From: Mobula hypostoma
Lineage: Eukaryota
Reading direction: 5' to 3'
Assembly (NCBI RefSeq): GCF_963921235.1
Contig: NC_086097.1
Coordinates: 77,812,001-77,876,000 of the forward strand
DNA: 64,000 bases
Part shown: positions 10,372-64,000 of the stretch, in pieces
How the letters are laid out: each line of letters opens with the position of its first letter
Position numbering within the stretch: the first letter of the stretch is position 1
Notes under the pieces: model-generated
Told to the model about the DNA's origin: nothing
Database searches by the model: none
Seen by the model: only the letters and a program-made list of their open reading frames with translations
Made by a program: the position numbers and the translations under genes

Positions 10372-10490
10372 TGAAATCAAACAGAAAATGCAGGAATTAA
10401 TCAGCAAGTCAGGTGGAAAGGCTCACAGCTTATTCTTCAGATGCTGTCTAACCTGCTGATCTTTTCCAGGTTTCTTTTTTGTTTTATTGG
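10372..10490. mobile_element. Very old Penelope-derived fold-back remnant
   Basis: aaacagaaaatgcaggaattaatcagcaagtcagg / cagatgctgtctaacctgctgatcttttccaggtttctttttgttt; resembles both orientations of the Penelope 3' repeat. Confidence 0.5.
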
Positions 10491-13729: not shown

Positions 13730-15855
13730 TCCCAATACCATAGTGCTGTGAACCACTGGGAGAATTCTGGAACTGGGGAGGACCACTTTGAAGCAAAGTG
13801 GATACTAAAGGATCCCAAGAAATAATAGTAAAATGTTATTAAGGAAGTTTCCAGAAAACAGACTTTGGATCATTACTTTTGCAACAGCCATACAAACTGA
13901 TTTAAGAGTTTTTACTCAGAGGATTCTAAAATGTGAAGCAGATTTGCAGCAATTGCTTTATGGAGATCTTCACCCCTGCTTTGAAGGGTATGGAACTCAA
14001 GAAATGGACTGAGACAAATTTCTTGTTCACACAGGTCCTGTGAATTCTCGTTCAGTAATTCGGCACTTGATCAAACAGGATGTGAATGGGTGGCGTGAGG
14101 GTGGTGGGAAAGGTGGTTGTTCCCTCTCCACCACTATCCTCCATCTGGCAGAACTGGTCTTCACCCTGAACAATTTTCCCTTCAGCTCCTCCCTCTTTGT
14201 CCACACTCCTGCCTCTTCGTTGGCTACATAGAACAGTCCATGTACTAAGCCTACCATGGTAGTACTCCCCAACTCTTCCTCCACTACATTGACGACTGTA
14301 TTGGTGCGGTTTCATGCATGTGCTGAGCATGTCAATTTCATCAACTTTGGCTTTAACTTCCACCCTGCCCTTAAATTCACTTGGTCCATTTCTGACACCT
14401 CCCTCCATTTACTTGCTCTCTCTCTCTCTCTCCATCTCTGAAGTCAAGCTGTCAACCAACATCTTTTATAAAGCTACCAATTGCCAGGGTTACCTGGACT
14501 ATACCTCTTCCTAACCTGTCTCCTATAAAAATACTATTGACTTTTCTCAGTTCCTTCACCTCCACAACATCTGTTCTCAAGATGAAGCTTTCCTTTCCTG
14601 GACATCACAGATGTCCTCCTTCTTTAAAGAATGGGGCTTCCCTTCCTGCCCTGTTAATGTTGCCCTTGCCTGTAATCTTCTATTTCCTGAACATCCACAT
14701 TCACTCAATCTTCCCGCCGCTTTAACAGTGATAAAGTTCCCCACCTACCACCCGATGAGCCTTCGCATTCAACATATCATCCTCCACCTCACCTCACTTT
14801 CCACCGGGAACGCTCCCTCCACGATTCCCTTGTTCATTCTTCCCTCTGCACTAATTTCCCTCACAGCACTTACCCCTGCAAGTGGCCTAAGTGCTACACC
14901 TGTCCATACACCTCCTCTCTCAGCTCCGTTCAGGCCAATAGTGGTCCTTCCAGGTAACACAACACTTCACCTGTGAATCTGCTGGAGTCCGCTACTGTGT
15001 CTGGTGCTCCTGATGTGGCCTTCTCTTCATTGGTGAGATCCGTCATAAATTGGGGGATTGTTTCATCGAGCACCTCCACACCATCCACCAAAATCTGAAC
15101 TTCCCGGTGACCAAGTATTCTAATTCCCATTCCTATTCCTATACCAACATGTTGGTCCATGGCCTCCTTTTGTGCCAAGTTGAGGCCACTCTCAGGGTGG
15201 AAGAGCAACACCTCATATTCCTTCTGGGTAGCCTCCAATCTGATGGTATGAATATCAATTTCTCCTTCCTTTCCCCTCTTCTTCTATTCCCCACTCTAGC
15301 CTTTTATCTCTTCTCACCTGCCAATTGCTCGCCCAACCCCCGCCCCCCGGTCCCCTTGTCTTTCCTTTTTCCTTGGTCCACTCCTCTCCTATCAGATTCC
15401 TTTCTCTCCAGCCCTTAACCTTTCCTACCCACTTAGCTTCACCTAGCATCTTCTAGCTATCCTCCTCCCCCCACCAATCTTTTTATTCTGGCATCTTCCC
15501 CTTTCCCCTTACTTTTCAGTCCTGAGGAAGGGTCTTGGCAAAAAATGTCGATTGTTTATTCATTTCTGTAAATGCTGCTTGGCCTGCCGAGTTCCTTTAG
15601 CATTTCGGGTAGGTTGATTTGGAATTCCAGCATCTGCAGTCTTTCTCATTTTTTTGTTTTTTTGTTGCTTGTTGTACGTTAACTACATGTTGTTCTGCTG
15701 AACATGGAGGGAATACTTTGTTAGAGCCAGAATGTATGGTGACACTTACAGGCTACCCCAGCACATATTCTGTTTGTGTTGGTTGTTAATGTAAATGACA
15801 CAGTTCACTGTATGTTTCAATGTACATGTGATTAATACATAAATACAATCTAATA
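13730..15855 (+). repeat. Unclassified ~520-bp interspersed repeat, copy 1 (13730-14118 and 15650-15855), split by a Penelope insertion
   Basis: Co-linear similarity to the uninterrupted copy at 23383-23900. Confidence 0.8.
14119..15650 (+). mobile_element. Old Penelope-like element (RT C-terminus, GIY-YIG, 3' repeat with decayed hammerhead)
   Basis: LAELVFTLNNFPF, HYIDDCIG-like, LSTNIFYKATN..YLDYTS, FIGE, VEEQHLIFLLGSLQSDGMNINFS; decayed ribozyme at ~15517-15552. Confidence 0.92.
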
Positions 15856-20847: not shown

Positions 20848-21486
20848 TAGGGTTGCCAACTGTCCCATATTTGCCTGGACATCCTGTATATAGGGCTAAA
20901 TTGGTTTGTCCCATACGGGACTGCCCTTGTCCCATATTTCCCCCGCTAAGGTAGAGCGTTCCTATGAAACCTTTCGTGCCGAAATGGCGTAAAGCGAAGA
21001 AGCAATTACCATTAATTTATATGGGAAAAATTTTTCAGCGTTCCCAGATCCAAAAAATAACCTTCCGAATCATAACGAATAACACATAAAACCTAAAATT
21101 ACTCTATCATATAGTAAAAGCAGGAATGATATGATAAATGCACACCCTATATAAAGTAGAAATAATTATGTACAGCATAGTCGGGAAGATTAAGCCAAAA
21201 CCGATTTGTGGAAAAAATAATCAGCACGTACGCACATGCGCATGTCACATATGTGCATGTCACGCATACACACACAGGTGCCCACGCAAGGCTTCATGGT
21301 CATGGTAGTCTTTCTCATGGTAAACACAAGTGTCCCGTCAACACACACAAAAAATGCTGGTGAACGCAGCAGGCCAGGTAGCATCTATAAGAAGAGGTAC
21401 AGTTGACGTTTCGAGCCGGGACCCTTCGTCAGGATTTGACTGCTACTTTTGTCCCTTTTTTGGGAGTGAGGAAGTTGGCAACCCTA
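20848..21486. mobile_element. Inner hAT (Blackjack-like) MITE nested in the Charlie element
   Basis: TIRs TAGGGTTGCCAACT / AGTTGGCAACCCTA with subterminal TGTCCC/GGGAC motifs; no matching TSD. Confidence 0.7.
21339..21436 (-). mobile_element. Short Penelope 3' repeat with hammerhead core
   Basis: Minus strand: aatc CTGACGA agggtcccggctc GAAA CGTC aact ... gtgtgtgttg. Confidence 0.88.
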
Positions 21487-22407
21487 ACTGTAAAAGACAG
21501 GTTGAGGTGAGTTTAACCCTAACACCACCCCCCCCCCCATCGGCCGGTTCGCAAGAATATTGTCAATATTAAACTGGTCCGCATTGCAAAAAAGGTTGGG
21601 GACCCCTGTTCTAGAGGAAACAACTTCAATCTGTCTGATCAGTCCTCATAGCCAAACATGCCCACCTATTGTCCTGAGTCTTGGCATTCTGATTCTTCTT
21701 ATAATCTGGTACCCAGACGTAAGCAATCCAACACAACCAGTGTTTTATAGAGTGGCAATTATATTTCACTACTTTTATATTCTATGCTTCAACCAATAAA
21801 AGTCAAAAGGCCTTCTTAACTACCTTGAACACACCCTGAATGATAAAGATAAAAATCCTTGGATACAACCACTGTTAAGAGCATGTGGGTAGAATCAAGT
21901 GATTAACATACCAAGTAAACAATTGAAATATATAATACTGCTAATTTCCATTTTTTTCAAAGTTGCTAACAATCAGCTAAGCATGCATCACACAGATTTC
22001 CTAAGTTATGGTAGAGAGGCTCTTAATGAATATTTACTATGTACTTCACGGAGGAATCAGAAAAAAAATTGGTAGTATTTCTTCTCATTTTAAAATATGT
22101 AGCTTTATTTCAGCCAAGTGTATCCTGTCCGGAACAAATCGAGACATACTTGAGATTACTTTAATGCAAATTGGACTCAAACATGACTGGAAGTGCTTGC
22201 TGAGCCAAACTTTGCCATTCTTTTAAGCCACTTCCTCTCTGCACTGGCAACAACTTGTGTTTTGCCCATGAGTTGCCATCTCCTGGTTCTGGCCAGGATA
22301 TCTCCTTACATAGAAATCACTAGTGACAATTCATGAACTTCAGCCTTTTTTATATTAGTGGTAAACAAAGCAACAGTAAAGTCCAACCTTGGCCCTCTCT
22401 CAGAATA

Positions 22408-22912
22408 ATACACATAAAGTGCTGGAGGAACTCAGTAGGCCTGGCAGCCTCTATGGAAAAGAGTAGACAATCGATGCTCTGCTTTCAGGTCTAGCAAAAA
22501 AAAGAGATGAGAAGTCAGAGTAAGAAAGTGAGGGAAGGGATGGAAGAAGTACGAGGTAGTAGGTGATAGGTGAAACCAGGAGAGGGGGTGTGATGAAGTA
22601 AAGGGCTAGGAAATCAATTGGTGAAAAAGGGGGAATCTGATAGGAGAGGATATTAGGCCATGAAGAAAAGGAATGGGGAGGAGCACCAGAGGGAAGTAAT
22701 GGGCAGGTAAGGAGATAAAGTGAGAGAAGGAAGTGGGCATGGAGATGGTGAAGGGGGGGGGGCAATTACAGGAAATTCACAAAATCAAAACTAATGCCAT
22801 CAGGTTGGAGGCTACCCAGATGGAATGCAAGGCGTTGCTCCTCCAACCTGACTGTGGCCTCATCGTGGCAGCAGAGGAGGCCGTGGGATTGGCATGTCAG
22901 AATGGGAATAGG
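22408..22912 (-). mobile_element. Old Penelope 3' fragment
   Basis: EATVRLEEQRLAFHLGSLQPDG-like antisense plus polypurine 3' UTR and gctggaggaactcag end. Confidence 0.85.
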
Positions 22913-22951
22913 ATCTCTCAGAACTACTGTTTTAACATCCAGAAATTACCT

Positions 22952-23900: not shown

Positions 23901-24532
23901 ATACCTAAATTTAATAAAAATCTATTTCTTAAACATATTGAGTGACTGAGCCACCACAGCCTTCCGTTGTTCACCACCCTTTGAGGGAAGAAATTTTCCC
24001 TCAGTCATCTTAGCATGACTGCTGAAACCATGATCCTAGTTTCTAGATCCTCCAGCTAAGGAAAACATCCTCCTTCCTTCCAGTAATTTCCCAATCCCCA
24101 TCTTCATTGTCTCCACTCCAGTCTTTCCCCCAATACCTGAAATCTTTGCTCCCTGTTTTTGAACAGTCTTACAAAGGAGATGTCCTTTCCATTTTCGCTA
24201 TTTAAAGCCATCAGATTATATTCATTATTTGTCTCCCCTGAACTGTCTCTATTCCAATCTAAACATTAGTTTATCCAGTCCCTACTGAAGGCTAAAATGT
24301 TCTGCTTCTGTCAACAACCTTATACATCTCCTTTTTGCCTACTTCAGTGCAATCACATTTTTCCTAATAATATGGTGAATTCTGTACAATACTGAAACAT
24401 AGTCCAGTTACCATTGTTTATAATTCCAGCATAACCTTTCAGTGTTTATATTCTATTCCCTAGCTAAGAAACAAACATTCAGTATGCATTTTTATTAACT
24501 TTACTTGATCTGCAGCCATTAAGTATCTGTAG

Positions 24533-24650
24533 GCACACACAAAATGCAGCAGGAACTCAGCAGACCAGGCAGCATCGATGAAAATGAGTACAGTCGACAT
24601 TTCAGGCCGAAAGGTTATCCAGCATCTGCACATTTTCTTTTGTTTGTGAT
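24533..24650. mobile_element. Short Penelope fold-back remnant
   Basis: Minus-strand repeat ending inside the hammerhead (gtcgacatttcaggccga), then plus-strand tail tccagcatctgcacattttcttttgtttg. Confidence 0.75.
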
Positions 24651-24934
24651 AAGTATCTATAGGCATACGTTCCAAGGCCCCTTTGTTCCTTCACAGCAGT
24701 CAGTATTTATTGGGAAGATTTTGTCTTTGAAAGCTGTTGCTAAAGTTTTTGATATGACAGCCGTCAAAAAGGTCAGCAGAGCAGTTAAGGGAAGAACCAC
24801 AGGATTAGTCACCTGAGATCTAACTATCAATTATGGATCACTCACCTTACTTGTTTTATATATATGATTGTGTTGCTAAGTTATTGATAATAGCTCTGTC
24901 ATAGGCCGAATCAGCATATAGGAGTGATATTGAA

Positions 24935-29106: not shown

Positions 29107-29516
29107 AAGGTGATAGGTGAAAACAGAAGGGGGGCAAGGGTGAAGAAAGAGCTGGGAAGTTGATTAGTGAAGGACATACAGGGCTGGAGAAGGGGGAAAT
29201 CTAATAGGAGAGGACAGAAGCCCATGGAAGAAAGGGAAGGAGGAAGAGCACCAAAGGGAGGTGATGGGCAGGTACAGAGGTAAGGGACCAGAAGTTCGAG
29301 AAATCAATGTTCATGCCATCAGGTTGGAGGCAACCCAGATGAAATATAAGGAATTCCTCCTCCAACCTGAGTGTGGCCTCATCTCCATTCCTGATGAAGG
29401 GTCTCGGCCTGAAACATCGTCTATACTCTTTTCCATAGATGCTGCTTGGCCTGCTGAGTTCCTCTAGCATTTTGTGTGTGTTGCTTGGATTTCCAGCATC
29501 TACAGGTTTTCTCTTG
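29107..29516. mobile_element. Penelope inversion: minus arm 29107-29386, plus arm starting at the hammerhead (29387-29516)
   Basis: EATLRLEEEFLIFHLGCLQPDGMNIDFSNF on minus; CTGATGA agggtctcggcct GAAA CATC on plus. Confidence 0.88.
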
Positions 29517-29823
29517 ATGTGGTTAAAGACTTCGGAGTAACTAAGTTTAACACACTAAACCCTGTGGAGTAAAATAACAAGAGGTGAATGTACTGAATGC
29601 AGTGCTTTCACACAACAGAGCATTTCCAGCTGTGTTGGACCTGGTCAAATTATAGGCAAGTCTGGGAAGATCTGGAGTATGTTCTTTCCACTGTTAATTC
29701 TCTGCTGCTTTTGTCTATAGGAATCCATTTGGTTTATTTTGTAACCTTAGCAACATTCCCGCATTTGAAGTTAGAAACTAATCAATTACATGACTCTGAG
29801 AAATGCATCAAGATAAAATAAAG

Positions 29824-30086
29824 CAACACATGCAAAATGCTGGAGGCACCTAACAGGCCAGGCAGCATCTATGGAAAAGAGTATAGTCGACATTTCGGGT
29901 CGAGATCCTTTGGCAGGACTGGAGAGAGGTCACACTCAGGTCATAACATCTTGAGTCCTGCCGAAGGATCTCAGCCCGAAACATTGACTATACTCTTTTC
30001 CATAGACGCTGCCTGGCCTGCTGAGTTCCTTCAGCATTTTGTGTGTGCTACTTGGATTTCCAGCATCTGCAGATTTTCTCCAGTTT
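29824..30086. mobile_element. Penelope-derived fold-back insertion with two opposed decayed hammerheads
   Basis: Inverted arms; ribozyme remnants 29885-29920 (-) and 29954-29989 (+); 14-bp TSD AAGATAAAATAAAG (29810-29823, 30087-30100). Confidence 0.92.
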
Positions 30087-30288
30087 AAGATAAAATAAAG
30101 AAACGCACTAAGTAAATTCAGGCAATGCTGAGAGGTTCAACAAGACCCAGAACTAAGATTTTCATGAAGATGCAATATAACGTTTAGGTAAATATTTCAG
30201 TGCTGTTGATAACAATTATCATTATTGACATTTCCAGTTCAGGTTTTGTTTCTTCTGTTCCTTCAATTTTGGCTTTCATCACATTATC

Positions 30289-42066: not shown

Positions 42067-43157
42067 AATGGTCACCCTAACTACTAACTTTTTCAGTATG
42101 ACCTGACTGTAATGCCCAGAAGTATAGCTCTAATCTGTTGGCTGCTCCTTTTACTGAAATAAACAGCATTAACTACAACAATGATATTGCTGCGGACTAC
42201 CAACTAGAATATCTGGATTTTACAGACTTCAACAGCAGTTATTTCTGTAAGTAGAAAATGACAGTTTTATGGAAGCCACTAATTATTGCCAAGTAACTAA
42301 TCTTGATATATTTAGTTTTTGAATCAAGAACACATTGTTATTGCCACAAACCAATAACAATGAAGGTGTGCATTGCTTAATGGAGAATACTTCAAAGCAA
42401 GGGATCTCGTGAATAAAACAGATGAACTGAAGGTATGGGTGGAATGGTGTAAGTTTGAAATTACAGATGAGGCAGTACGTAACCTGTTGGAAAGGCATGG
42501 TAGTATAGAACTCATCTGTGTATCAATGGGGTGTATATTTATGGTATTAACTACAATTAACTAGCATAGTTATGGAAAACATAGACAGGCCAGATGTAAA
42601 ATTTTGCAATTAACGCAAGATCAACTTTATGAGTTGAATGATAAATTAACAGAAATGAACTTGAAGCAGCTACTTGGGAGGAAGTCAGCATCAAAACTCT
42701 GTGATAATGAGAACTCAGGGCAAACACAACTTTGAAAACAGGTGAACTAAAATGTAACCCAGGCTAGAAAGGGAAGAAAGGGAGAATCTGGGCATAGTTT
42801 TACAATCCTCTCTGGTAGAAGACATAGTTCTGAGGGGCTGGAAGAAAGCTAATGTTGTACTGTAGATCAAAAGGTGAGGGAGTTAAATTGAGTAAATGAA
42901 ATTGAGATAGTCTGGCCACAATGGTGGATAGTTAATGGAAAATATGCTGATAGTTTGAGGAGATTCACAAGGACATCTGCAAGACTGAATAATAAGGAAA
43001 GACTATGCAGGGAGTATTTAACTTTTTTCAAGGACAGTAGGGACTAAGATGGGTACTTTGTAATGATATATGAAATGATAACTGGGCCAAAAGGAGAACA
43101 ACAAATATCATTCCCTTAACCGAGGGGACAATAACCAATGAACTTAAATCTAAACTA

Positions 43158-43294
43158 ACGCAAACATGAGGATATCTGCAGATGCTGGAAATTCAAGCAA
43201 GACACACAAAATGCTGGTGGAACATAGCAGGCCAGACAGCATCCATAGAAAGAAACACAGTTGATGTTTTGGGCCGAGACCCTTCGTCAGGACT
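43158..43294 (-). mobile_element. Single-arm Penelope 3' repeat starting at the hammerhead 5' edge
   Basis: Minus: agtc CTGACGA agggtctcggccc aAAA CATC aact...gtttgcgt; TSD aaatctaaactaa (43146-43158) / aaatctaaattaa (43296-43308). Confidence 0.9.
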
Positions 43295-43520
43295 CAAATC
43301 TAAATTAAGATTGGTGAAAACACTTTTTCTGTTACATGAATGGTGGTGGGGAAGAAAGTACATGCAGAAATTGCCATCATATTTATTAAGTAATTGCAAT
43401 GCCCTAATCTACAACAATAGAAAATGAGATTAATTTTGATAGTCTGTATTAAGGCAGTACAGTCAAGAATGGTCTAAATGGACTTCTCCTTTCCCACTGG
43501 ATTATATAATTTTTCGAAGA

Positions 43521-43890: not shown

Positions 43891-45312
43891 ATAGAAGAAG
43901 CATATCTGAATTATTTATTAGGTAAAATTTATTTATTCTTATCACAACAACAGTTTATCATTGAACAAGCTGCTGGTGTTTTCCTGCTCCTTCTCGTACA
44001 AAGGATTACAATGTTTTCTAAGTCCCACACAAGCAAATAATTCCATTCTCTGCAAATCTATTCATATTTTCAAATCAACTACATTATGTAAACGAAAAAG
44101 GGATGAGAGGGTGACTTGATAGAGGCATATAAGAGAATATAGACATAGATCAAATAGATAGTCAGAGGCTTTTTCTCCAGGTTGAGCTGGTTGATACCAG
44201 GGGACATAATTTTAAGCTGATTGCAGGAAGGTACAGGGAAATGTCAGAGGTAAGTTCTTTTACACAGAGAGTGGTGAGTGCAGGGGTTGTGGTGGAGGCT
44301 GATACACTAGTGTGAAGGGATCCAGGAGTGCCCCTATTAACTGTTTGAAGAGAGACAGAGAGAGACATTTATCATGGATGGTTTGTTTGAAAAGGAGAGA
44401 GAGACAGTTATTTACCACTGATATGTTGCTTTTGAAAAGAGAGAGAGAGAGAGAGACGAAGATTAACGGTTGGACTGTCACTTTAAGGCATTGGAAGTAA
44501 CTTTGGATTTTTACTGAGTTTGGAGTTGGAGACAGCACCGAGCAGCTTGAAAGTTGCTATGGTGACCAAAGGCAGATTGTTGATGTTACTTTCAAGGACT
44601 TGTTGCCTGCTTGTGCACTTCTTTACAGACAAAGGAAGGAGGGACTCTGAATGACAGGTGATGCTCAGCCTGGTGAGATAAGTAGGAGGTCAGATGATAC
44701 AGACCTCGGATACATGATCTGGACACTGAATGAGCATTATTGTGCCAGCAGAAAAGTGGGTTTTGGAGGATCAATCAGGTGGATTGATCCGAATTGCTAT
44801 TCCAATGTAGGAGAAGGGGTTGACTGGTGGGGAGTTGTCTATGTGTCCACCCTTGCCAGGGTGATAGCTCCACCACAGGAAAACCGGTCCCCTTGGTTAA
44901 AGTCACAGTCGGTGACTTGTAAAGGATTTTGGAGGACGACGAGAAGATCGACGGCATCAGCTCACCTGAAGACTCAACTCACTCTCTCTCTCTCTCTCTC
45001 TCCATCGCTATTCAACTAAATACCACGAACTGAACTGAACTTTACTCAACATCGTAAGACTGTATCTTTTTACCCATAGACTTAAAGAAGTTTGGTTTTC
45101 ATACATATATATTCCACACTTACTTTTATATATAATCATTGCTAACCTGTGCGATTTATTTACATTGATATTACTGTATTGCGTAGTTACTAATAAATAT
45201 TAGTAGTTTATAGCAATACGAGACTCCAAAGTAGTTTCTATTTCTGCTGACAACATACATCAAAGTTGCTGGTGAACGCAGCAGGCCAGGCAGCATCTAT
45301 AGGAAGAGGCGC

Positions 45313-45348
45313 AGTCGATGTTTCAGGCCGAGACCCTTCCTCAGGACT
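45313..45348 (-). ncRNA. Hammerhead motif in the opposite arm (ACGT mutated to ACAT)
   Basis: agtc-CTGAGGA-agggtctcggcct-GAAA-CATC-gact. Confidence 0.65.
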
Positions 45349-46602
45349 AACTGAAGGAAGAGTGAGTAAGGGATTTGAAAGCTGGAGGGGGAGGGGGAGA
45401 TGCAAAATGATAGGAGAAGACAGGAGGGGGAGGGATAGAGCCGAGAGCTGGACAGGTGATAGGCAGAAGGGGATACGAGAGGATCATGGGACAGGAGGTC
45501 CGGGAAGAAAGACGGGGGGGGGGTGACCCAGAGGATGGGCAAGAGGTATATTCAGAGGGACAGAGGGAGAAAAAGGAGAGTGAGAGAAAGAATGTGTGCA
45601 TTAAAAAGAGTAACAGATGGGGTACGAGGGGGAGGTGGGGCCTAGCGGAAGTTAGAGAAGTCAATGTTCATGCCATCAGGTTGGAGGCTACCCAGACGGA
45701 ATATAAGGTGTTGTTCCTCCAACCTGAGTGTGGCTTCATCTTTACAGTAGAGGAGGCCGTGGATAAACATGTCAGAATGGGAATGGGATGTGGAATTAAA
45801 ATGTGTGGCCACTGGGAGATCCTGCTTTCTCTGGCGGACAGAGCGTAGATGTTCAGCAAAGCGGTCTCCCAGTCTGCGTCGGGTCTCACCAATATATAAA
45901 AGGCCACATCGGGAGCACCGGACGCAGTATATCACTCCAGTCGACTCACAGGTGAAGTGATGCCTCACCTGGAAGGACTGTTTGGGGCCCTGAATGGTGG
46001 TAAGGGAGGAAGTGTAAGGGCATGTGTAGCACTTGCTCCCGATGTGGCCTTTTATATATTGGTGAGACCCGACGCAGACTGGGAGACCGCTTTGCTGAAC
46101 ATCTACGCTATGTCCGCCAGAGAAAGCAGGATCTCCCAGTGGCCACACATTTTAATTCCACATCCCATTCCCATTCTGACATGTCTATCCACGGCCTCCT
46201 CTACTGTAAAGATGAAGCCACACTCAGGTTGGAGGAACAACACCTTATATTCCGTCTGGGTAGCCTCCAACCTGATGGCATGAACATTGACTTCTCTAAC
46301 TTCCGCTAGGCCCCACCTCCCCCTCGTACCCCATCTGTTACTCTTTTTAATGCACACATTCTTTCTCTCACTCTCCTTTTTCTCCCTCTGTCCCTCTGAA
46401 TATACCTCTTGCCCATCCTCTGGGTCACCCCCCCCCCGTCTTTCTTCCCGGACCTCCTGTCCCATGATCCTCTCGTATCCCCTTCTGCCTATCACCTGTC
46501 CAGCTCTTGGCTCCATCCCTCCCCCTCCTGTCTTCTCCTATCATTTTGCATCTCCCCCTCCCCCTCCAGCTTTCAAATCCCTTACTCACTCTTCCTTCAG
46601 TT

Positions 46603-46638
46603 AGTCCTGACGAAGGGTCTCGGCCTGAAACGTCGACT
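46603..46638 (+). ncRNA. Minimal type-I hammerhead ribozyme motif (intact core)
   Basis: agtc-CTGACGA-a-gggtctcggcct-GAAA-CGTC^gact: helix I agtc/gact, helix II gggtc/ggcct, helix III reduced to palindrome ACGT; predicted cut after 46634. Confidence 0.85.
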
Positions 46639-46875
46639 GCGCCTCTTCCTATAGATGCTGCCTGGCCTGCTGCGTTCACCAGCAACTTTGATGTATGTTG
46701 CTTGAATTTCCAGCATCTGCAGAATTCCTGTTGTTTGCGTTCTATTTCTGCTGGTTTCTTTATCCCTGTCACGGGGTACATGACACTAGGGGCATTTCGG
46801 AAACACTTAAATGATGGAAAAATGGAGGATTATGAAGGCAGGGAGGATTATGAAGGCAGGAAGGATTAGAATGAT

Positions 46876-47083
46876 CTTGTTGCTACTGTTAAGTGCCATT
46901 GAATCATTGTTAACTCATGGCGACCCTGTAGATACTGTATTTATCCATAGGGTTTTCATGGCAAGATACAAGCTAGATTGCCAGTCCTTCCTTCCACGCA
47001 GATACTGCTGCTGCCCAGGTTGGGACCCAGTCGGATTCAAACTCATGACCATCTGCCTTGAAGTCGTTTGCTGCTGCCACTAC
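46876..47083 (-). mobile_element. tRNA-derived SINE with RTE-type 3' tail
   Basis: Minus: B-box-like gagtttgaatcc, gtatcttgccatgaaaaccc, gggtcgccatgagt...(caa)-like end, typical of RTE/BovB-mobilised SINEs. Confidence 0.65.
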
Positions 47084-47145
47084 AAGATTAGTACAACATT
47101 GTGGGCCAAATGACCTGTACTGTGCTGTAATGTTCTTTACTCTAT

Positions 47146-47262
47146 ACATAATATGCTGGAGGAATTCAGTAAGGCAGGCGGCATCTTTGGAGAAGAAAAA
47201 CGAGCCAATGTTTTGGGCCAAAGTGCTTCATCAGGACAGAATCTGCAGAATCTCTTGTGTTC
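47146..47262. mobile_element. Old short Penelope fold-back
   Basis: Minus arm ends at cttcatcaggac (47237, ribozyme 5' edge), then flips to plus tail atctgcagaatctcttgtgt. Confidence 0.7.
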
Positions 47263-48339
47263 TATGTCTATCTATGAAGATGATCATACAGTTAAAGGCA
47301 AGCTACCTCCCTCACTAGTTGGAACAAATGACTACTGATCAGAAAAATAGATTACTTTTAAATTTTTCAGTTAGAATTTTTACTTTACTGAGTTGATTCT
47401 GGAGACACTATCCAGTTGCATCAAAGTCATGTGTTGATTTAGAAGCTCCCCGATACATTTTAAGATTAACGGTCTCACTTTAATAGCATCGATAGTTTAT
47501 TAAAATAATGGCAAACAAAAATACCACTGTGAGTTCTCAAATGAAGAGGAAACTAATAAATGCTTTCATGGAAACTTGTGAAATATTGTAAAAAAACGCC
47601 TGAATAACTGGCTCGGTCATCAAAGGGCAACTATTCAAAATGGATAATGAACAGGAGGAAGAGGAATTTTTATTCCACACCAATGGAAATGTTGACTGTA
47701 CTGAATTCCAGAATGGAATAATATCCCCTCAATAACCACAAATGTTTTTTTTCTCAGTGTATAACTGTAATATTAAAATATGAGGAATGTTAAAATATTT
47801 TGGGAGTTTTGGATGACATTTGTTGGAAAAGGATGCCCTCAAGTATGTTTTATTGCCCACCCTGCTGATGCTAAACTTTAACAAAGCTTTTATGGAGTAT
47901 AATATCAAGTTAACAGCCACAGACGACGAAAAACAAGTTGAAGATCCAAGAAGTTTTTCCTGGGACATTCAAGATCTAAGAACCTCAATTACAAGGTGAT
48001 CAATGATGTTAATAAATTGTAGTAGTAATAATATATGCTAATGACCATAATGTCTTTTTCAAATCAACTTTTAAGAAGTGATTTAGTTCACCAACAGATT
48101 TCAAAAGGAGCTGATGGTGTTTCACATTTTTCTGGAATTAGGCTGAAGAAGACAGTATGGCCCAAGTAGGTTACTTTGGTGGTTATCCAATTCATGAGTA
48201 GTCGAAAGAATTGAATATGCCACCCCATTCCTTTATCCCTTTACATTCCTCTTCTTCAAACATCTGTCCAATTTGATTTTCATTCCAAGATCATTTTGAC
48301 TCAAAGCCTTAGCTCTGACAGTAATTTCAGTTCTCAACA

Positions 48340-60110: not shown

Positions 60111-60754
60111 TAATGGAAACAGAATTTACATTGATCATTATTTGTGCTTGAAATTTCCTCTCTCTTTTATGTAAACTGGCCAACTCTGAGCAAATTGCAC
60201 TGAAGAATATGATGGAAGCCAATGGACAACTTGGCACTTGTGACTGTTGGTAGTAAATAACATTGCTCAATCGTGCAACTTATTATGAAAGCTCTTCCAG
60301 CTCCCTGGCACAAAACACAAGTGACAGTCCCACATTCATTATTATTATTCTCATCAACATCAGAAACATGAAAGCACAGTCTAAACATTCAAAATGGGAA
60401 ATATACTGGCCAATTATTTTCCTTTTCTTCATAAACATTCTGTTTCCATAACGTTCATGTAGTTGCTTCATACTTTAATTCTGGTCATTTCCCACTCCAG
60501 TCATATTGTTTTCATGTTTTGCTTTTGATTGGAAACCAACTTGAAGCACTTTCAGACACTTACCTTTCCAACTTTCTCTCTTATATTTTCCAATCTCTCT
60601 TCCAAATCTGAGGAGATGATTTCATTTTCTTTTTATTTTTTTTCGCCCCAATATTTTTGCTTCTTTGAGTCACCTAAAATGACCCAACCCTGCCTCACTA
60701 AGTGTATCATGTGCTATTATATCTATGAATGACAAAGTAGCAGAATTCAAAGAG

Positions 60755-60981
60755 CAACACACATCAAAGTTGCTGGTGAACGCAGCAGGCCAGGCAGCAT
60801 CTATAGGAAGAGGCGCAGTCGACGTTTCAGGCCGAGACCCTTCGTCCTGACGAAGGGTCTTGGCCTGAAACGTCGACTGCACCTCTTCCTATAGATGCTG
60901 CCTGGCCTGCTGCGTTCACCAGCAACTTTGATGTGTGTTGCTTGAATTTCCAGCATCTGCAGAATTCCTGTTGTTTGCGTT
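60755..60981. mobile_element. Near-perfect 227-bp Penelope palindrome folded back within the hammerhead
   Basis: 94-bp arms 60753-60846 and 60849-60942 with 2-nt loop, then ~40-nt tail; 13-bp TSD AGAATTCAAAGAG (60742-60754, 60982-60994). Confidence 0.96.
60844..60878 (+). ncRNA. Minimal hammerhead ribozyme motif
   Basis: gtc-CTGACGA-agggtcttggcct-GAAA-CGTC^gact. Confidence 0.75.
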
Positions 60982-61832
60982 AGAATTCAAAGAGAATAGT
61001 TTATCTATTTAAGTAACTCTGCTTTTCAGTTTCATTGCTAATTATCACAGAGAGCTTCATTTCTCCTCACTAAAAGATCTCAATGACCATGGCAATCTGA
61101 GTGAGTTCACCATGTTCCTGTACCTGCATTGTCTCAGATAATCTTCCAAGTCATTTCTGCAACTCCATTACCAATTCATGCAGAATATCTTCTTCCTCTT
61201 CTGTCTGTTGTTTTGTATTTCTCTCCTCTAGTGTGTTGTATAATCAGTCACAAACATTGAATTAGTCTGCTCTTTTATGGCACTGTGGTTTCTTCCAAAT
61301 GCTCGCCAAAATTTTAATGGACCCGCAAAAACTGTCAGAAAAAAAGTTGTAAATGTGTATCTTCTGTCAAAGGTGTAGCAATCATTTGGAAGCATATCTG
61401 TGTCAATTCAGGATTGGTAAAGGAACTGAAAGAGTACAATGAGAATTTGTGTAACTCCAAGCTTTAAATCTTGCATTCTGTTATTTTTTCCAATGTTAAT
61501 TAGGCCAATAAACAAACAGATCAGCCTTCAGGAGGTTGAAATGCTTACACTTAATAATGACCCTTTTTATATTTTTTTGCAATAGCATTTTTTTTAATGT
61601 AATTTATCTGTCTTCTTTTAGATGGAAAATTGACCAAGTAGAAATGCAGCAAATTTTGATGAGTCAGACAAAATCTTCGCTTCAAAATTATATTTCAGAT
61701 GAGGAAGCAAGGAAAAGCATGAATGTCAATAACCAAACAACAGGAATTCTGCAGATGCTGGAAATTCAAGCAACACACATCAAAGTTGCTGGTGAACGCA
61801 GCAGGCCAGGCAGCATCTGTAGGAAGAGGTGC

Positions 61833-61868
61833 AGTCGACGTTTCAGGCCGAGACCCTTCGTCAGGACT
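61833..61868 (-). ncRNA. Minimal type-I hammerhead ribozyme motif (intact core)
   Basis: Reverse complement is identical to 46603-46638. Confidence 0.85.
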
Positions 61869-62754
61869 AACTGAAGGAAGAGTGAGTAAGGGATTTGAAA
61901 GTTGGAGGGGGAGGGGGAGATCCAAAATGATAGGAGAAGACAGGAGGGGGAGGGATAGAGTCAAGAGCTGGACAGGTGATAGGCAAAAGGGGATACGAGA
62001 GGATCATGGGACAGGAGGTCCGGGAAGAAAGACAAGGGGGGGGGACCCAGAGGATGGGCAAGAGGTACATTCAGAGGGACAGAGGGAGAAAAAGGAGAGT
62101 GAGAGAAAGAATGTGTGCATAAAAGTAAGTAACAGATGGGGTACGAGGGGGAGGTGGGGCCTTAGCGGAAGTTAGAGAAGTCGATGTTCATGCCATCAGG
62201 TTGGAGGCTACCCAGATGGAATATAAGGTGTTGTTCCTCCAACCTGAGTGTGGCTTCATCTTTACAGTAGAGGAGGCCATGGATAGACATGTCAGAATGA
62301 GAATGGGATGTGGCCACTGGGAGATCCTGCTTTCTCTGGCGGACAGAGCGTAGATGTTCAGCAAAGCGGTCTCCCAGTCTGCGTCGGGTCTCGCCAATAT
62401 ATAAAAGGCCACATCGGGAGCACCGGACTCAGTATATCACCCCAGTCGACTCACAGGTGAAGTGTTGCCTCACCAGGAAGGACTGTTTGGGGCCCTGAAT
62501 GGTGGTAAGGGAGGAAGTGTAAGGGCATATGTAGCACTTGTTCCGCTTACACGGATAAGTGCCAGGAGGGAGATCAGTGGGGAGGGATGGGGGACGAATG
62601 GACAAGGGAGTTGCGAGGAATAGTCCAGATAGCTGTGAGAGTCAGTAGGCTTATAGTAGACATCAGTGGATAAGCTGTCTCCAGAAACAGAGACAGAAAG
62701 ATCTAGAAAGGGGAGGGAGGTATCGGAAATGGGAGGAGCCAAATGGGAGGCGGG

Positions 62755-63681
62755 GTCTCTGTCTCTGGAGACAGCTTATCCACTGATGTCTACTATAAGC
62801 CTACTGACTCTCACAACTATCTGGACTATTCCTCTTCTCACCCTGTCTCTTGCAAAAACGCCATCCCCTTCTCGCAATTCCTCTGTCTCCGCCGCATCTG
62901 CTCTCAGGATGAGGCTTTTCATTCTAGGACGAGGGAGATGTTTTCCTTTTTTAAAGAAAGGGGCTTCCCTTCCTCCACTATCAACTCTGCTCTTAAACGC
63001 ATCTCCCCCATTTCACGTACATCTGCTCTCACTCCATCCTTCCGCCACCCCACTAGGAATAGGGTTCCCCTGGTCCTCACCTACCACCCCACCAGCCTCC
63101 GGGTCCAACAGATTATTCTCCGTAACTTCCGCCACCTCCAGCGGGATCCCGCCACTAAACACATCTTTCCCTCCCCCCCTCTCTCTGCATTCCGCAGGGA
63201 TCGCTCCCTACACAACTCCCTTGTCCATTCGTCCCCCCCATCCCTCCCCACTGATCTCCCTCCTAGCGCTTATCCGTGTAAGCGGAACAAGTGCTACACA
63301 TGCCCTTACACATCCTCCCTTACCACCATTCAGGGCCCCAAACAGTCCTTCCAGGTGAGGTAACACTTCACCTGTGAGTCGACTGGGGTGATATACTGTG
63401 TCCGGTGCTCCCGATGTGGCCTTTTATATATTGGTGAGACCCGACGCAGACTGGGAGACCGCTTTGCTGAACATCTACGCTCTGTCCGCCAGAGAAAGTA
63501 GGATCTCCCAGTGGCCACACATTTTAATTCCACACCCCATTCCCATTCTGACATGTCTATGTACGGCCTCCCCTACTGTAAAGATGAAGCCACACTCAGG
63601 TTGGAGGAACAACACCTTATATTCCATCTGGGTAGCCTCCAACCTGATGGCATGAACATCGACTTCTCTAACTTCCGCTAA
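62755..63681 (+). pseudogene. Penelope ORF C-terminal part: RT thumb, Cys-rich linker, GIY-YIG endonuclease; premature TAA at 63361
   Basis: LSTDVYYKPTDSHNYLDYSSSHP..KNAIPFSQFL.LRRICS, PCKRNKCYTC, HFTCESTGVIYCVRCSRCGLLYIGET, LQPDGMNIDFSNFR*. Confidence 0.92.
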
Positions 63682-64000
63682 GGCCCCACCTCCCCTTCGT
63701 ACCCCATCTGTTACTTACTTTTATGCACACATTCTTTCTCTCTCTCCTTTTTCTCCCTCTATCCCTCTGAATATACCTCTTGCCCATCCTCTGGGTCCCC
63801 CCCCACCTTGTCTTTCTTCCCGGACCTCCTGTCCCATGATCCTCTCGTATCCCCTTTTGCCTATCACCTGTCCAGCTCTTGACTCTATCCCTCCCCCTCC
63901 TGTCTTCTCCTATCATTTTGGATCTCCCCCTCCCCCTCCAGCTTTCAAATCCCTTACTCACTCTTCCTTCAGTTAGTCCTGACAAAGGGTCTCGGCCTGA

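Follow-up and report, generated by a model that had tools for sequence, protein, structure and literature searches.

Head-to-head insertions of a Penelope-like element in Mobula hypostoma pair two distinct 3' ends and point to priming at both target nicks

The stretch of Mobula hypostoma DNA analysed here (the window; 64,000 nucleotides of contig NC_086097.1, numbered from its first letter) carries multiple insertions of a Penelope-like retroelement, of which the one at 45250 serves as the reference locus. This insertion is bounded by an exact target site duplication (TSD) of 14 bp, with plus-strand copies at 45236-45249 and, as delimited by flank comparison, at 46740-46753. Between them, two copies of the element's 3' region face outwards with their 3' ends: a left arm on the minus strand (45250-46039) and a right arm on the plus strand (46034-46739). 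The inverted arms (45251-45917 versus 46034-46700) are 99% complementary over 667 nt, and the minus strand of the left arm carries on through a spacer of 116 nt (45918-46033) as far as 46039, its inner end lying 122 nt further 5' than that of the right arm. The arms meet in 6 nt of microhomology (46034-46039, plus strand, TG(T/C)TCC) with one mismatch to the left-arm continuation. The right arm comprises a coding remnant of a GIY-YIG endonuclease (to about 46303), the 3' untranslated region, a minimal type I hammerhead motif (46603-46638, plus strand) and a tail. The motif has a helix I of 4 bp, the core CTGACGA, GAAAC and a palindromic helix III, with a predicted cut after 46634; its mirror copy in the left arm (45313-45348, minus strand) was identified by the same descriptor search. 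The outer ends are unequal: the right arm reaches the end of the tail (termed site A), and the left arm ends at an earlier position (termed site B) plus one additional base. End mapping places the tail between B and A at 46701-46739 (plus strand, about 40 nt). When contigs of four runs (approximately 287,000) were compared with 45918-47300, neither the 45250 junction nor an empty site was found among the matches listed; the element family is very abundant in all four contig runs, and its intact elements connect 45918 to 46034 on opposite strands. In the right flank, an 18-bp tandem duplication (46826-46861) is absent from contigs of runs X1 and X16.

The coding capacity of the element is best seen at 62758-63720, within the insertion at 61731, which translates in one frame, with internal stops, as a reverse transcriptase (RT) thumb, a linker and a GIY-YIG domain. 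The GIY-YIG match of this copy (E=0.001) is below the Pfam gathering cut-off; homologs of the product carry PF00078 and PF01541, and the RT core is present in the window only as remnants. The nearest proteins are from rays (92%, Mobula; 84%, Hypanus). A CCHH motif with two cysteines between GIY and YIG can be read in translation, and the linker follows the pattern C-x4-C-x2-C, which is also present in the second family described below and fits the CX2-5CxxC linker between RT and endonuclease (EN). The CCHH motif and this linker, the latter common to Neptune and Nematis, have been described as defining features (PMC8557442). By these definitions, the window element is classed from its motifs as an endonuclease-bearing Penelope-like element, putatively of Neptune type. 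The optional tail of 30-40 nt and the inverted, 5'-truncated partner within a TSD that are expected of such elements were both found, while no full-length partial-tandem unit with direct pseudo-long terminal repeats was identified in the window or in the collected second-family loci. Hammerheads were sought with our own descriptor, with G-U pairs allowed and hammerhead features taken from PMC4209133, giving three matches in the window, none in the reversed window and none in 20 shuffles. Rfam scans returned no hammerhead family at the gathering threshold or at E<=10; a weak UnaL2 match (E=2.9) was taken as chance. The hammerhead is present as a predicted sequence motif. The initial annotation had described a hammerhead-bearing Penelope-like element, and the RT-GIY-YIG frame, CCHH motif, linker and minimal motif support this. 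DNA pattern scans for the window family gave no match in metagenome or viral contigs.

An inventory of the window by profile search (no matches in the reversed window) and translated searches gave twelve insertion loci, eight two-armed and four single-armed; a weak match at 10426 was kept out of this count and left unclassified. The five insertions described initially, at 2173, 29824, 45250, 60755 and 61731, all have the claimed layout of outward-facing 3' ends, with TSDs of 10 bp (one mismatch), 14, 14 and 13 bp at the first four; the count itself was too low, two-armed loci at 24534, 47144 and 29108-29519 and the four single-armed loci adding to it. Both outer ends are present at six two-armed loci: 2173 (2160-2280; A left, B right; TSD also readable as 13 bp with two mismatches; arms not nested), 24534 (24520-24665; B left, tail-only A right, without overlap; 16-bp TSD with one mismatch), 29824 (29810-30100; B left, A right), 45250, 47144 (47132-47265; B left, tail-only A right, without overlap; TSD unclear in a microsatellite-like tail) and 60755 (60742-60994; B left, A right; junction GTC; both inner ends at the hammerhead foot). 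Of the remaining two, 29108-29519 has lost its left outer end, keeps A on the right and has its junction in common with 29824, and the long insertion at 61731 (61731-64000; A left) leaves the window, its right arm encoding the RT thumb, Cys linker and GIY-YIG. The single-armed loci are an old copy with an A end and RT and EN remnants inside another repeat (14127-15650, plus strand; no TSD found), two arms ending at B (21331-21457, minus strand, inner end at the hammerhead foot, doubtful TSD of 8 bp; 22396-22923, minus strand, exact 10-bp TSD) and one ending at A (43146-43308, minus strand, 13-bp TSD with one mismatch, inner end at the hammerhead foot).

At all six window loci with both outer ends, one arm ends at A and the other at B, about 40 nt before it (P=0.016 if each end picked its site independently at 50:50). 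These sites had been called fixed; there are indeed two, each a narrow zone rather than a point (B, 46696-46701; A, approximately 46733-46740, in the coordinates of the reference arm). TSDs of 10-16 bp flank five of the six loci, compared with a chance level of 0.5% for direct repeats of at least 10 bp at both ends among 3000 random position pairs, and with 1/72 mismatched flank pairs.

A second, distant family, likewise of Neptune type by its linker, shows the same pairing. A protein search of metagenome contigs yielded 29 loci, among them a distant relative (L019) with the A+B layout and a 13-bp TSD, and two head-to-head loci with one outer end missing (L017 and L022). The L019 motif matched two genome bins (G001 and G002), in which copies were located by four motif scans and a DNA search, and 59 regions were analysed. 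Judged from their content, these bins evidently hold eukaryotic, probably animal, DNA; both are filed as bacteria, and their 51 and 10 Penelope-like matches (L030-L127) are likely host-DNA contamination. After omission of L086 (the L070 locus), L020 (L019 again) and five loci that lack one outer end (L096, L102, L113, L017 and L022), 26 two-armed loci were kept, with L019 counted apart. A direct repeat of 11-17 bp lies at both ends of 20 of these 26, one of the 20 being a microsatellite (L088), and 5/648 mismatched flank pairs reach 11 bp. Every one of the 20 loci with a repeat of at least 11 bp is A+B (19/19 without L088, P=2e-6), four B ends, at which TSD and element overlap, having been assigned by visual inspection. 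The six loci without a TSD comprise three A+B (L067, L111 and L120), two that are ambiguous (L070 and L081) and one B+B (L068); A+A was found in 0/26 and in none of the sets. The second-family tail is about 55 nt long and its B site is confined to about 10 nt, against about 5 nt for the window family. A DNA pattern scan of viral contigs did not detect the second family. In the window and in the second family, arm ends cluster at A and B and TSDs are enriched. The insertion is a 5'-truncated copy ending at A, head to head with one ending 40-55 nt earlier (B), inside a TSD of about 13 bp. Among the other second-family copies, L065, L078, L092, L104, L107 and L108 are single arms ending at the hammerhead foot, mostly without a detectable TSD, unlike the two-armed loci, and were possibly joined with target deletion. 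A B+B palindrome at L124 (G001:C15, 4725-7984) extends for 1.5 kb including its flanks, on a contig with a hairpin end, and could be a fold-back artefact or a larger inverted duplication.

The arms of a pair are often not nested. At four of the six window loci (2173, 24534, 45250 and 47144) the B arm contains 5' sequence missing from the A arm, as it does at 9/19 non-microsatellite second-family loci read by hand, so that the B arm exceeds the A arm in 13/25 clear cases. Two window loci (24534 and 47144, where the A arm is the tail only and starts about 10 nt past B) and three second-family loci have arms that do not overlap at all. Single B arms with an exact TSD also occur (22407, 10 bp; L071). 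Since the arms are often non-nested, B is a priming site rather than the stop of a fold-back copy. Between insertions, 11 substitutions separate both 45250 arms from both 61731 arms without a crossing pattern, which makes the arms of each insertion sisters. Arm lengths range from about 25 to >1000 nt and most junctions are unique; together with TSDs of 10-17 bp, this agrees with the view that these are independent insertions and not copies of one miniature inverted-repeat transposable element (MITE). Joining by microhomology, proposed as the general route, is seen at 45250 and 60755, and 2173, 24534 and 61731 show either a blunt join or filler; junctions were inspected visually, as the automated measure inflates filler owing to subfamily variants. 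Zero-loop head-to-head joins in the hammerhead-foot zone occur at L073 and L099. The neighbouring junctions at 29384 and 29941, 400 bp apart, are near-identical in opposite orientation and may mark a microhomology hot spot or a re-mobilised palindromic copy.

The inner ends are also not randomly placed. Among the 13 short window arms, six have inner ends that fall in a span of 7 nt at the 5' hammerhead foot (P=0.004; 0.02 if 60755 is counted once), and of 64 anchored matches in the second family, 20 end inside a 5-nt zone at this foot, compared with 3 in the preceding 20 nt. At this boundary, both families carry what we take to be an initiator-like motif. The sharp boundary is best read as the putative 5' end of the RNA. 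An internal promoter inside the terminal repeat has been described for Penelope (PMC2377424). The predicted cleavage position of the hammerhead coincides with the inner end of none of the 13 short window arms. Of 25 second-family arms, 2 end exactly there and 4 within 1 nt by script (P=0.07 and 0.04); after hand correction (four indel-misplaced rows removed, one corrected) the figures are 3 and 5 of 21 (P~0.005), a weaker cluster that serves as a lead only. The arms concerned (L076:487, L091:492, L118:562, L112:493 and L114:3985, at or within 1 nt of the predicted cut) are a possible genomic trace of in vivo cleavage. An additional untemplated G precedes the hammerhead foot at 43295 (the 43157 locus), at 29952 (right arm of 29824) and in one contig joint (run X5, 46713 to 46603); it is possibly a copied RNA cap, or else a mutation or filler, and was not used as evidence.

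Both target nicks very likely prime reverse transcription, because an element 3' end adjoins each TSD copy at a defined site, B can act without A and many arm pairs are not nested. For the features seen in the sequences themselves (TSDs, outward 3' ends, A/B pairing, non-nested arms, sister arms and inner ends at the hammerhead foot), the best explanation, which we regard as probable, is programmed twin priming, with both arms reverse-transcribed, one nick starting at A and the other at B. The claim that both target ends carry an element 3' end, one per site, holds at 6/6 window loci and 20/20 TSD-flanked second-family loci, plus L019. Such strict pairing would be expected of a single asymmetric complex more than of two that act independently. 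Staggered nicks would both start reverse transcription, and an asymmetric complex, probably a protein dimer on one tail, would allot one nick to each site. An A-primed complementary DNA (cDNA) stalling near B would give non-overlapping arms; one that passes B, either by displacing the B cDNA or with a second RNA unit as its template, would give overlapping arms. Short arms may be cDNAs that ran to the 5' end of an RNA starting shortly before the hammerhead. The cDNA 3' ends would then be joined bluntly, by microhomology or with templated filler, with fill-in making the TSD, and loss of one cDNA would leave a single A or B arm. The initial annotation had both nicks priming over the same RNA sequence, which overstates the case: the non-nested arms uphold B as a priming site, and the overlaps may come from a re-copied RNA stretch, from two RNAs, from two units of a tandem transcript or, less probably, from fold-back fill.

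Programmed twin priming has to be weighed against routes in which an arm is copied from DNA. Both nicks may prime, at A and B, with one cDNA then folding back at microhomology and copying its own DNA until it meets the short opposite cDNA. No RNA stretch need then be copied twice; the long B cDNA at 45250 contains the complement of its own 3' end, so that annealing in cis with a 116-nt loop is possible, and sister arms and hairpin-like junctions (60755, L100) are compatible with it. We nevertheless consider this unlikely: the zero-loop palindromes L073 and L099, at the inferred RNA 5' end, are more simply explained as two run-off cDNAs joined end to end, and the spacer-bearing arm at 61731 is without 380-nt and 15-nt pieces present in the other arm, unless these were later deletions. 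A single priming at A, after which the cDNA folds back, copies itself, stops at B and joins the other target end, would account for the A/B asymmetry and for the nested cases 60755, L067, L088, L090 and L106. It needs the B arm to lie inside the A arm and so cannot explain the pairs at 4/6 window and 9/19 second-family loci, five of which lack any overlap; as single B arms with TSDs exist as well, it is very improbable as a general route and could hold for a minority only.

The template could instead have been palindromic already, either because an antisense transcript served for self-priming (PMC3846280) or because a palindromic master copy, spreading in the manner of a MITE, was read through. 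Rotifer junction palindromes have been interpreted so, and the junctions common to 29384/29941 and to L073/L099 fit such a template, yet most junctions are unique with arms from about 25 to >1000 nt, and it does not explain why the second outer end lies at B, which acts as a start site in vitro, or how single, TSD-flanked B arms arise; its chances are accordingly slim. That the palindromes are assembly or sequencing fold-back artefacts is barely credible: palindromes are prone to assembly error and L068 resembles one, but the arms differ by 1-17%, they are asymmetric by a fixed tail, TSDs stand far above chance in two unrelated data sets, and the same layout has been published for other species.

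Several points weigh against programmed twin priming. Nesting or symmetry is seen in about half of the overlapping pairs, and fold-back would produce this too; in the second family, arm pairs are mostly no nearer to each other than to other loci, in a comparison of low power with star-like divergence; and the junctions common to two locus pairs (29384/29941 and L073/L099) may reflect inheritance rather than a hot spot. The pairing of L070 and L081 is ambiguous, and L068, the one B+B locus among the 26, lacks a TSD, has inverted flanks as well and lies on a contig ending in a hairpin. The whole sample consists of one 64-kb window and a partial, motif-selected set from two contaminated assemblies. 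The proposed steps are read back from end products in this family, and the RNA 5' end is presumed from arm ends. RNAalifold found no compensatory pairs in a tail stem-loop, and shuffled sequences fold as well as the terminal region does (z=0.34). In vitro, start-site use by Poseidon of Anolis carolinensis was equal between strands (PMC11167929), a bulk result that is neutral on pairing per molecule.

The anatomy and the in vitro ingredients (two start sites, both strands extended) are already known. The layout has been published (Arkhipova 2013, Craig 2021), and for Penelope/Poseidon, Neptune and Naiad insertions it is treated qualitatively and ascribed to antisense self-priming or to endonuclease resolution of an intermediate (PMC8557442, PMC3846280, PMC2377424). 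Unlike in the available parts of those papers, pairing is counted here (no A+A), single fold-back is rejected by non-nested arms and the clustering of inner ends is shown. Anole Poseidon initiates in vitro at two internal sites that bound the tail, just 3' of the hammerhead (Frangieh 2024, PMC11167929); both target strands are cut and extended, a dimer is predicted, and the hammerhead cut site yielded no RNA ends. Poseidon belongs to a different clade from the window element, which has a Neptune-type linker, and in the text of PMC11167929 that was available the two sites are not tied to the two strands of one target, nor are inverted insertions derived from them. In the openly available literature, no paper was found with a count of A/B pairing or with a twin-priming model for Penelope-like elements, and the accessible portion of a retrozyme preprint (10.64898/2026.07.22.740005) does not address either. 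Three points were not found in print: A/B pairing is near-obligate in both of two distant families, single fold-back is excluded, and inner ends stop at a common boundary.

The nearest parallel is L1 twin priming (PMC2912911, 10.1101/2024.08.27.596794; see also PMC12350158 and 10.1101/2024.12.14.628481), in which both nicks likewise prime on RNA, the cDNA 3' ends are joined by microhomology, the TSD is retained and small deletions or duplications occur at the inversion point. As in L1, both target ends here carry oppositely oriented cDNA 5' starts inside the TSD. In L1, however, chance complementarity decides at which of many internal sites the second primer anneals, and overlaps remain short, whereas the second site of the Penelope-like elements is fixed 40-55 nt from the first (B spanning about 5 nt in the window family and about 10 nt in the other), overlaps can exceed 700 nt and 8/12 window insertions are two-armed. 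The initial contrast, that L1 segments do not overlap, was overstated: 5'-inverted L1 insertions carry an internal duplication in 17% (median 22 bp) and a deletion in 66% (median 14.5 bp) of cases (10.1101/2024.08.27.596794), and five insertions of the present set are non-overlapping. Because of this 17%, overlap alone does not part the two systems; the fixed second site does. Like MITEs and foldback DNA transposons, the insertions have inverted arms within a TSD. A MITE, whose copies would all represent a single fixed element with matching terminal inverted repeats and TSDs of constant length, was considered and rejected, as the outer ends are unequal, arms, junctions and TSDs (10-17 bp) vary, most junctions are unique, and the arms derive from the 3' end of a retroelement, remnants of RT and endonuclease included.

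How tandem and inverted Penelope-like insertions are made is called undefined in the field's own papers (PMC11167929 among them). The one-A-one-B rule in two distant families is a sharp prediction that can be tested per molecule in the existing in vitro system. If true, it would describe a retrotransposon for which priming from both DNA ends is part of the design, in contrast to L1, where this happens by accident; it would account for the tail, for the inverted repeats and for the hammerheads that occur by the thousands in animal genomes, isolated or on the opposite strand, and would help to keep annotators from filing such insertions as MITEs. A broader reading, tentative and somewhat doubtful in our estimation, is that endonuclease-bearing Penelope-like elements throughout the animals may integrate by programmed twin priming as a default. 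Each RNA tail would carry an asymmetric dimer that gives A to one target strand and B to the other, the tail would be the dimer footprint, and many hammerhead-bearing insertions of 100-150 nt would be complete run-offs of RNA starting just before the ribozyme, with a minority from ribozyme-cleaved RNA.

Some further features were noted around these insertions. Directly before the hammerhead of the reference arm, a pyrimidine tract ending in CAG (46585-46600) resembles a 3' splice site, the AG being absent in the second family; the Penelope element of D. virilis has an intron whose end lies at helix I (PMC4209133). At 62613-62755, the left arm of 61731 skips 380 nt internally and has a deletion of 15 nt flanked by short direct repeats, and the filler at its junction includes a short tandem duplication. 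Directly to the left of this insertion, 61620-61730 is a possible host exon, with a pyrimidine tract, an AG and a short open frame.

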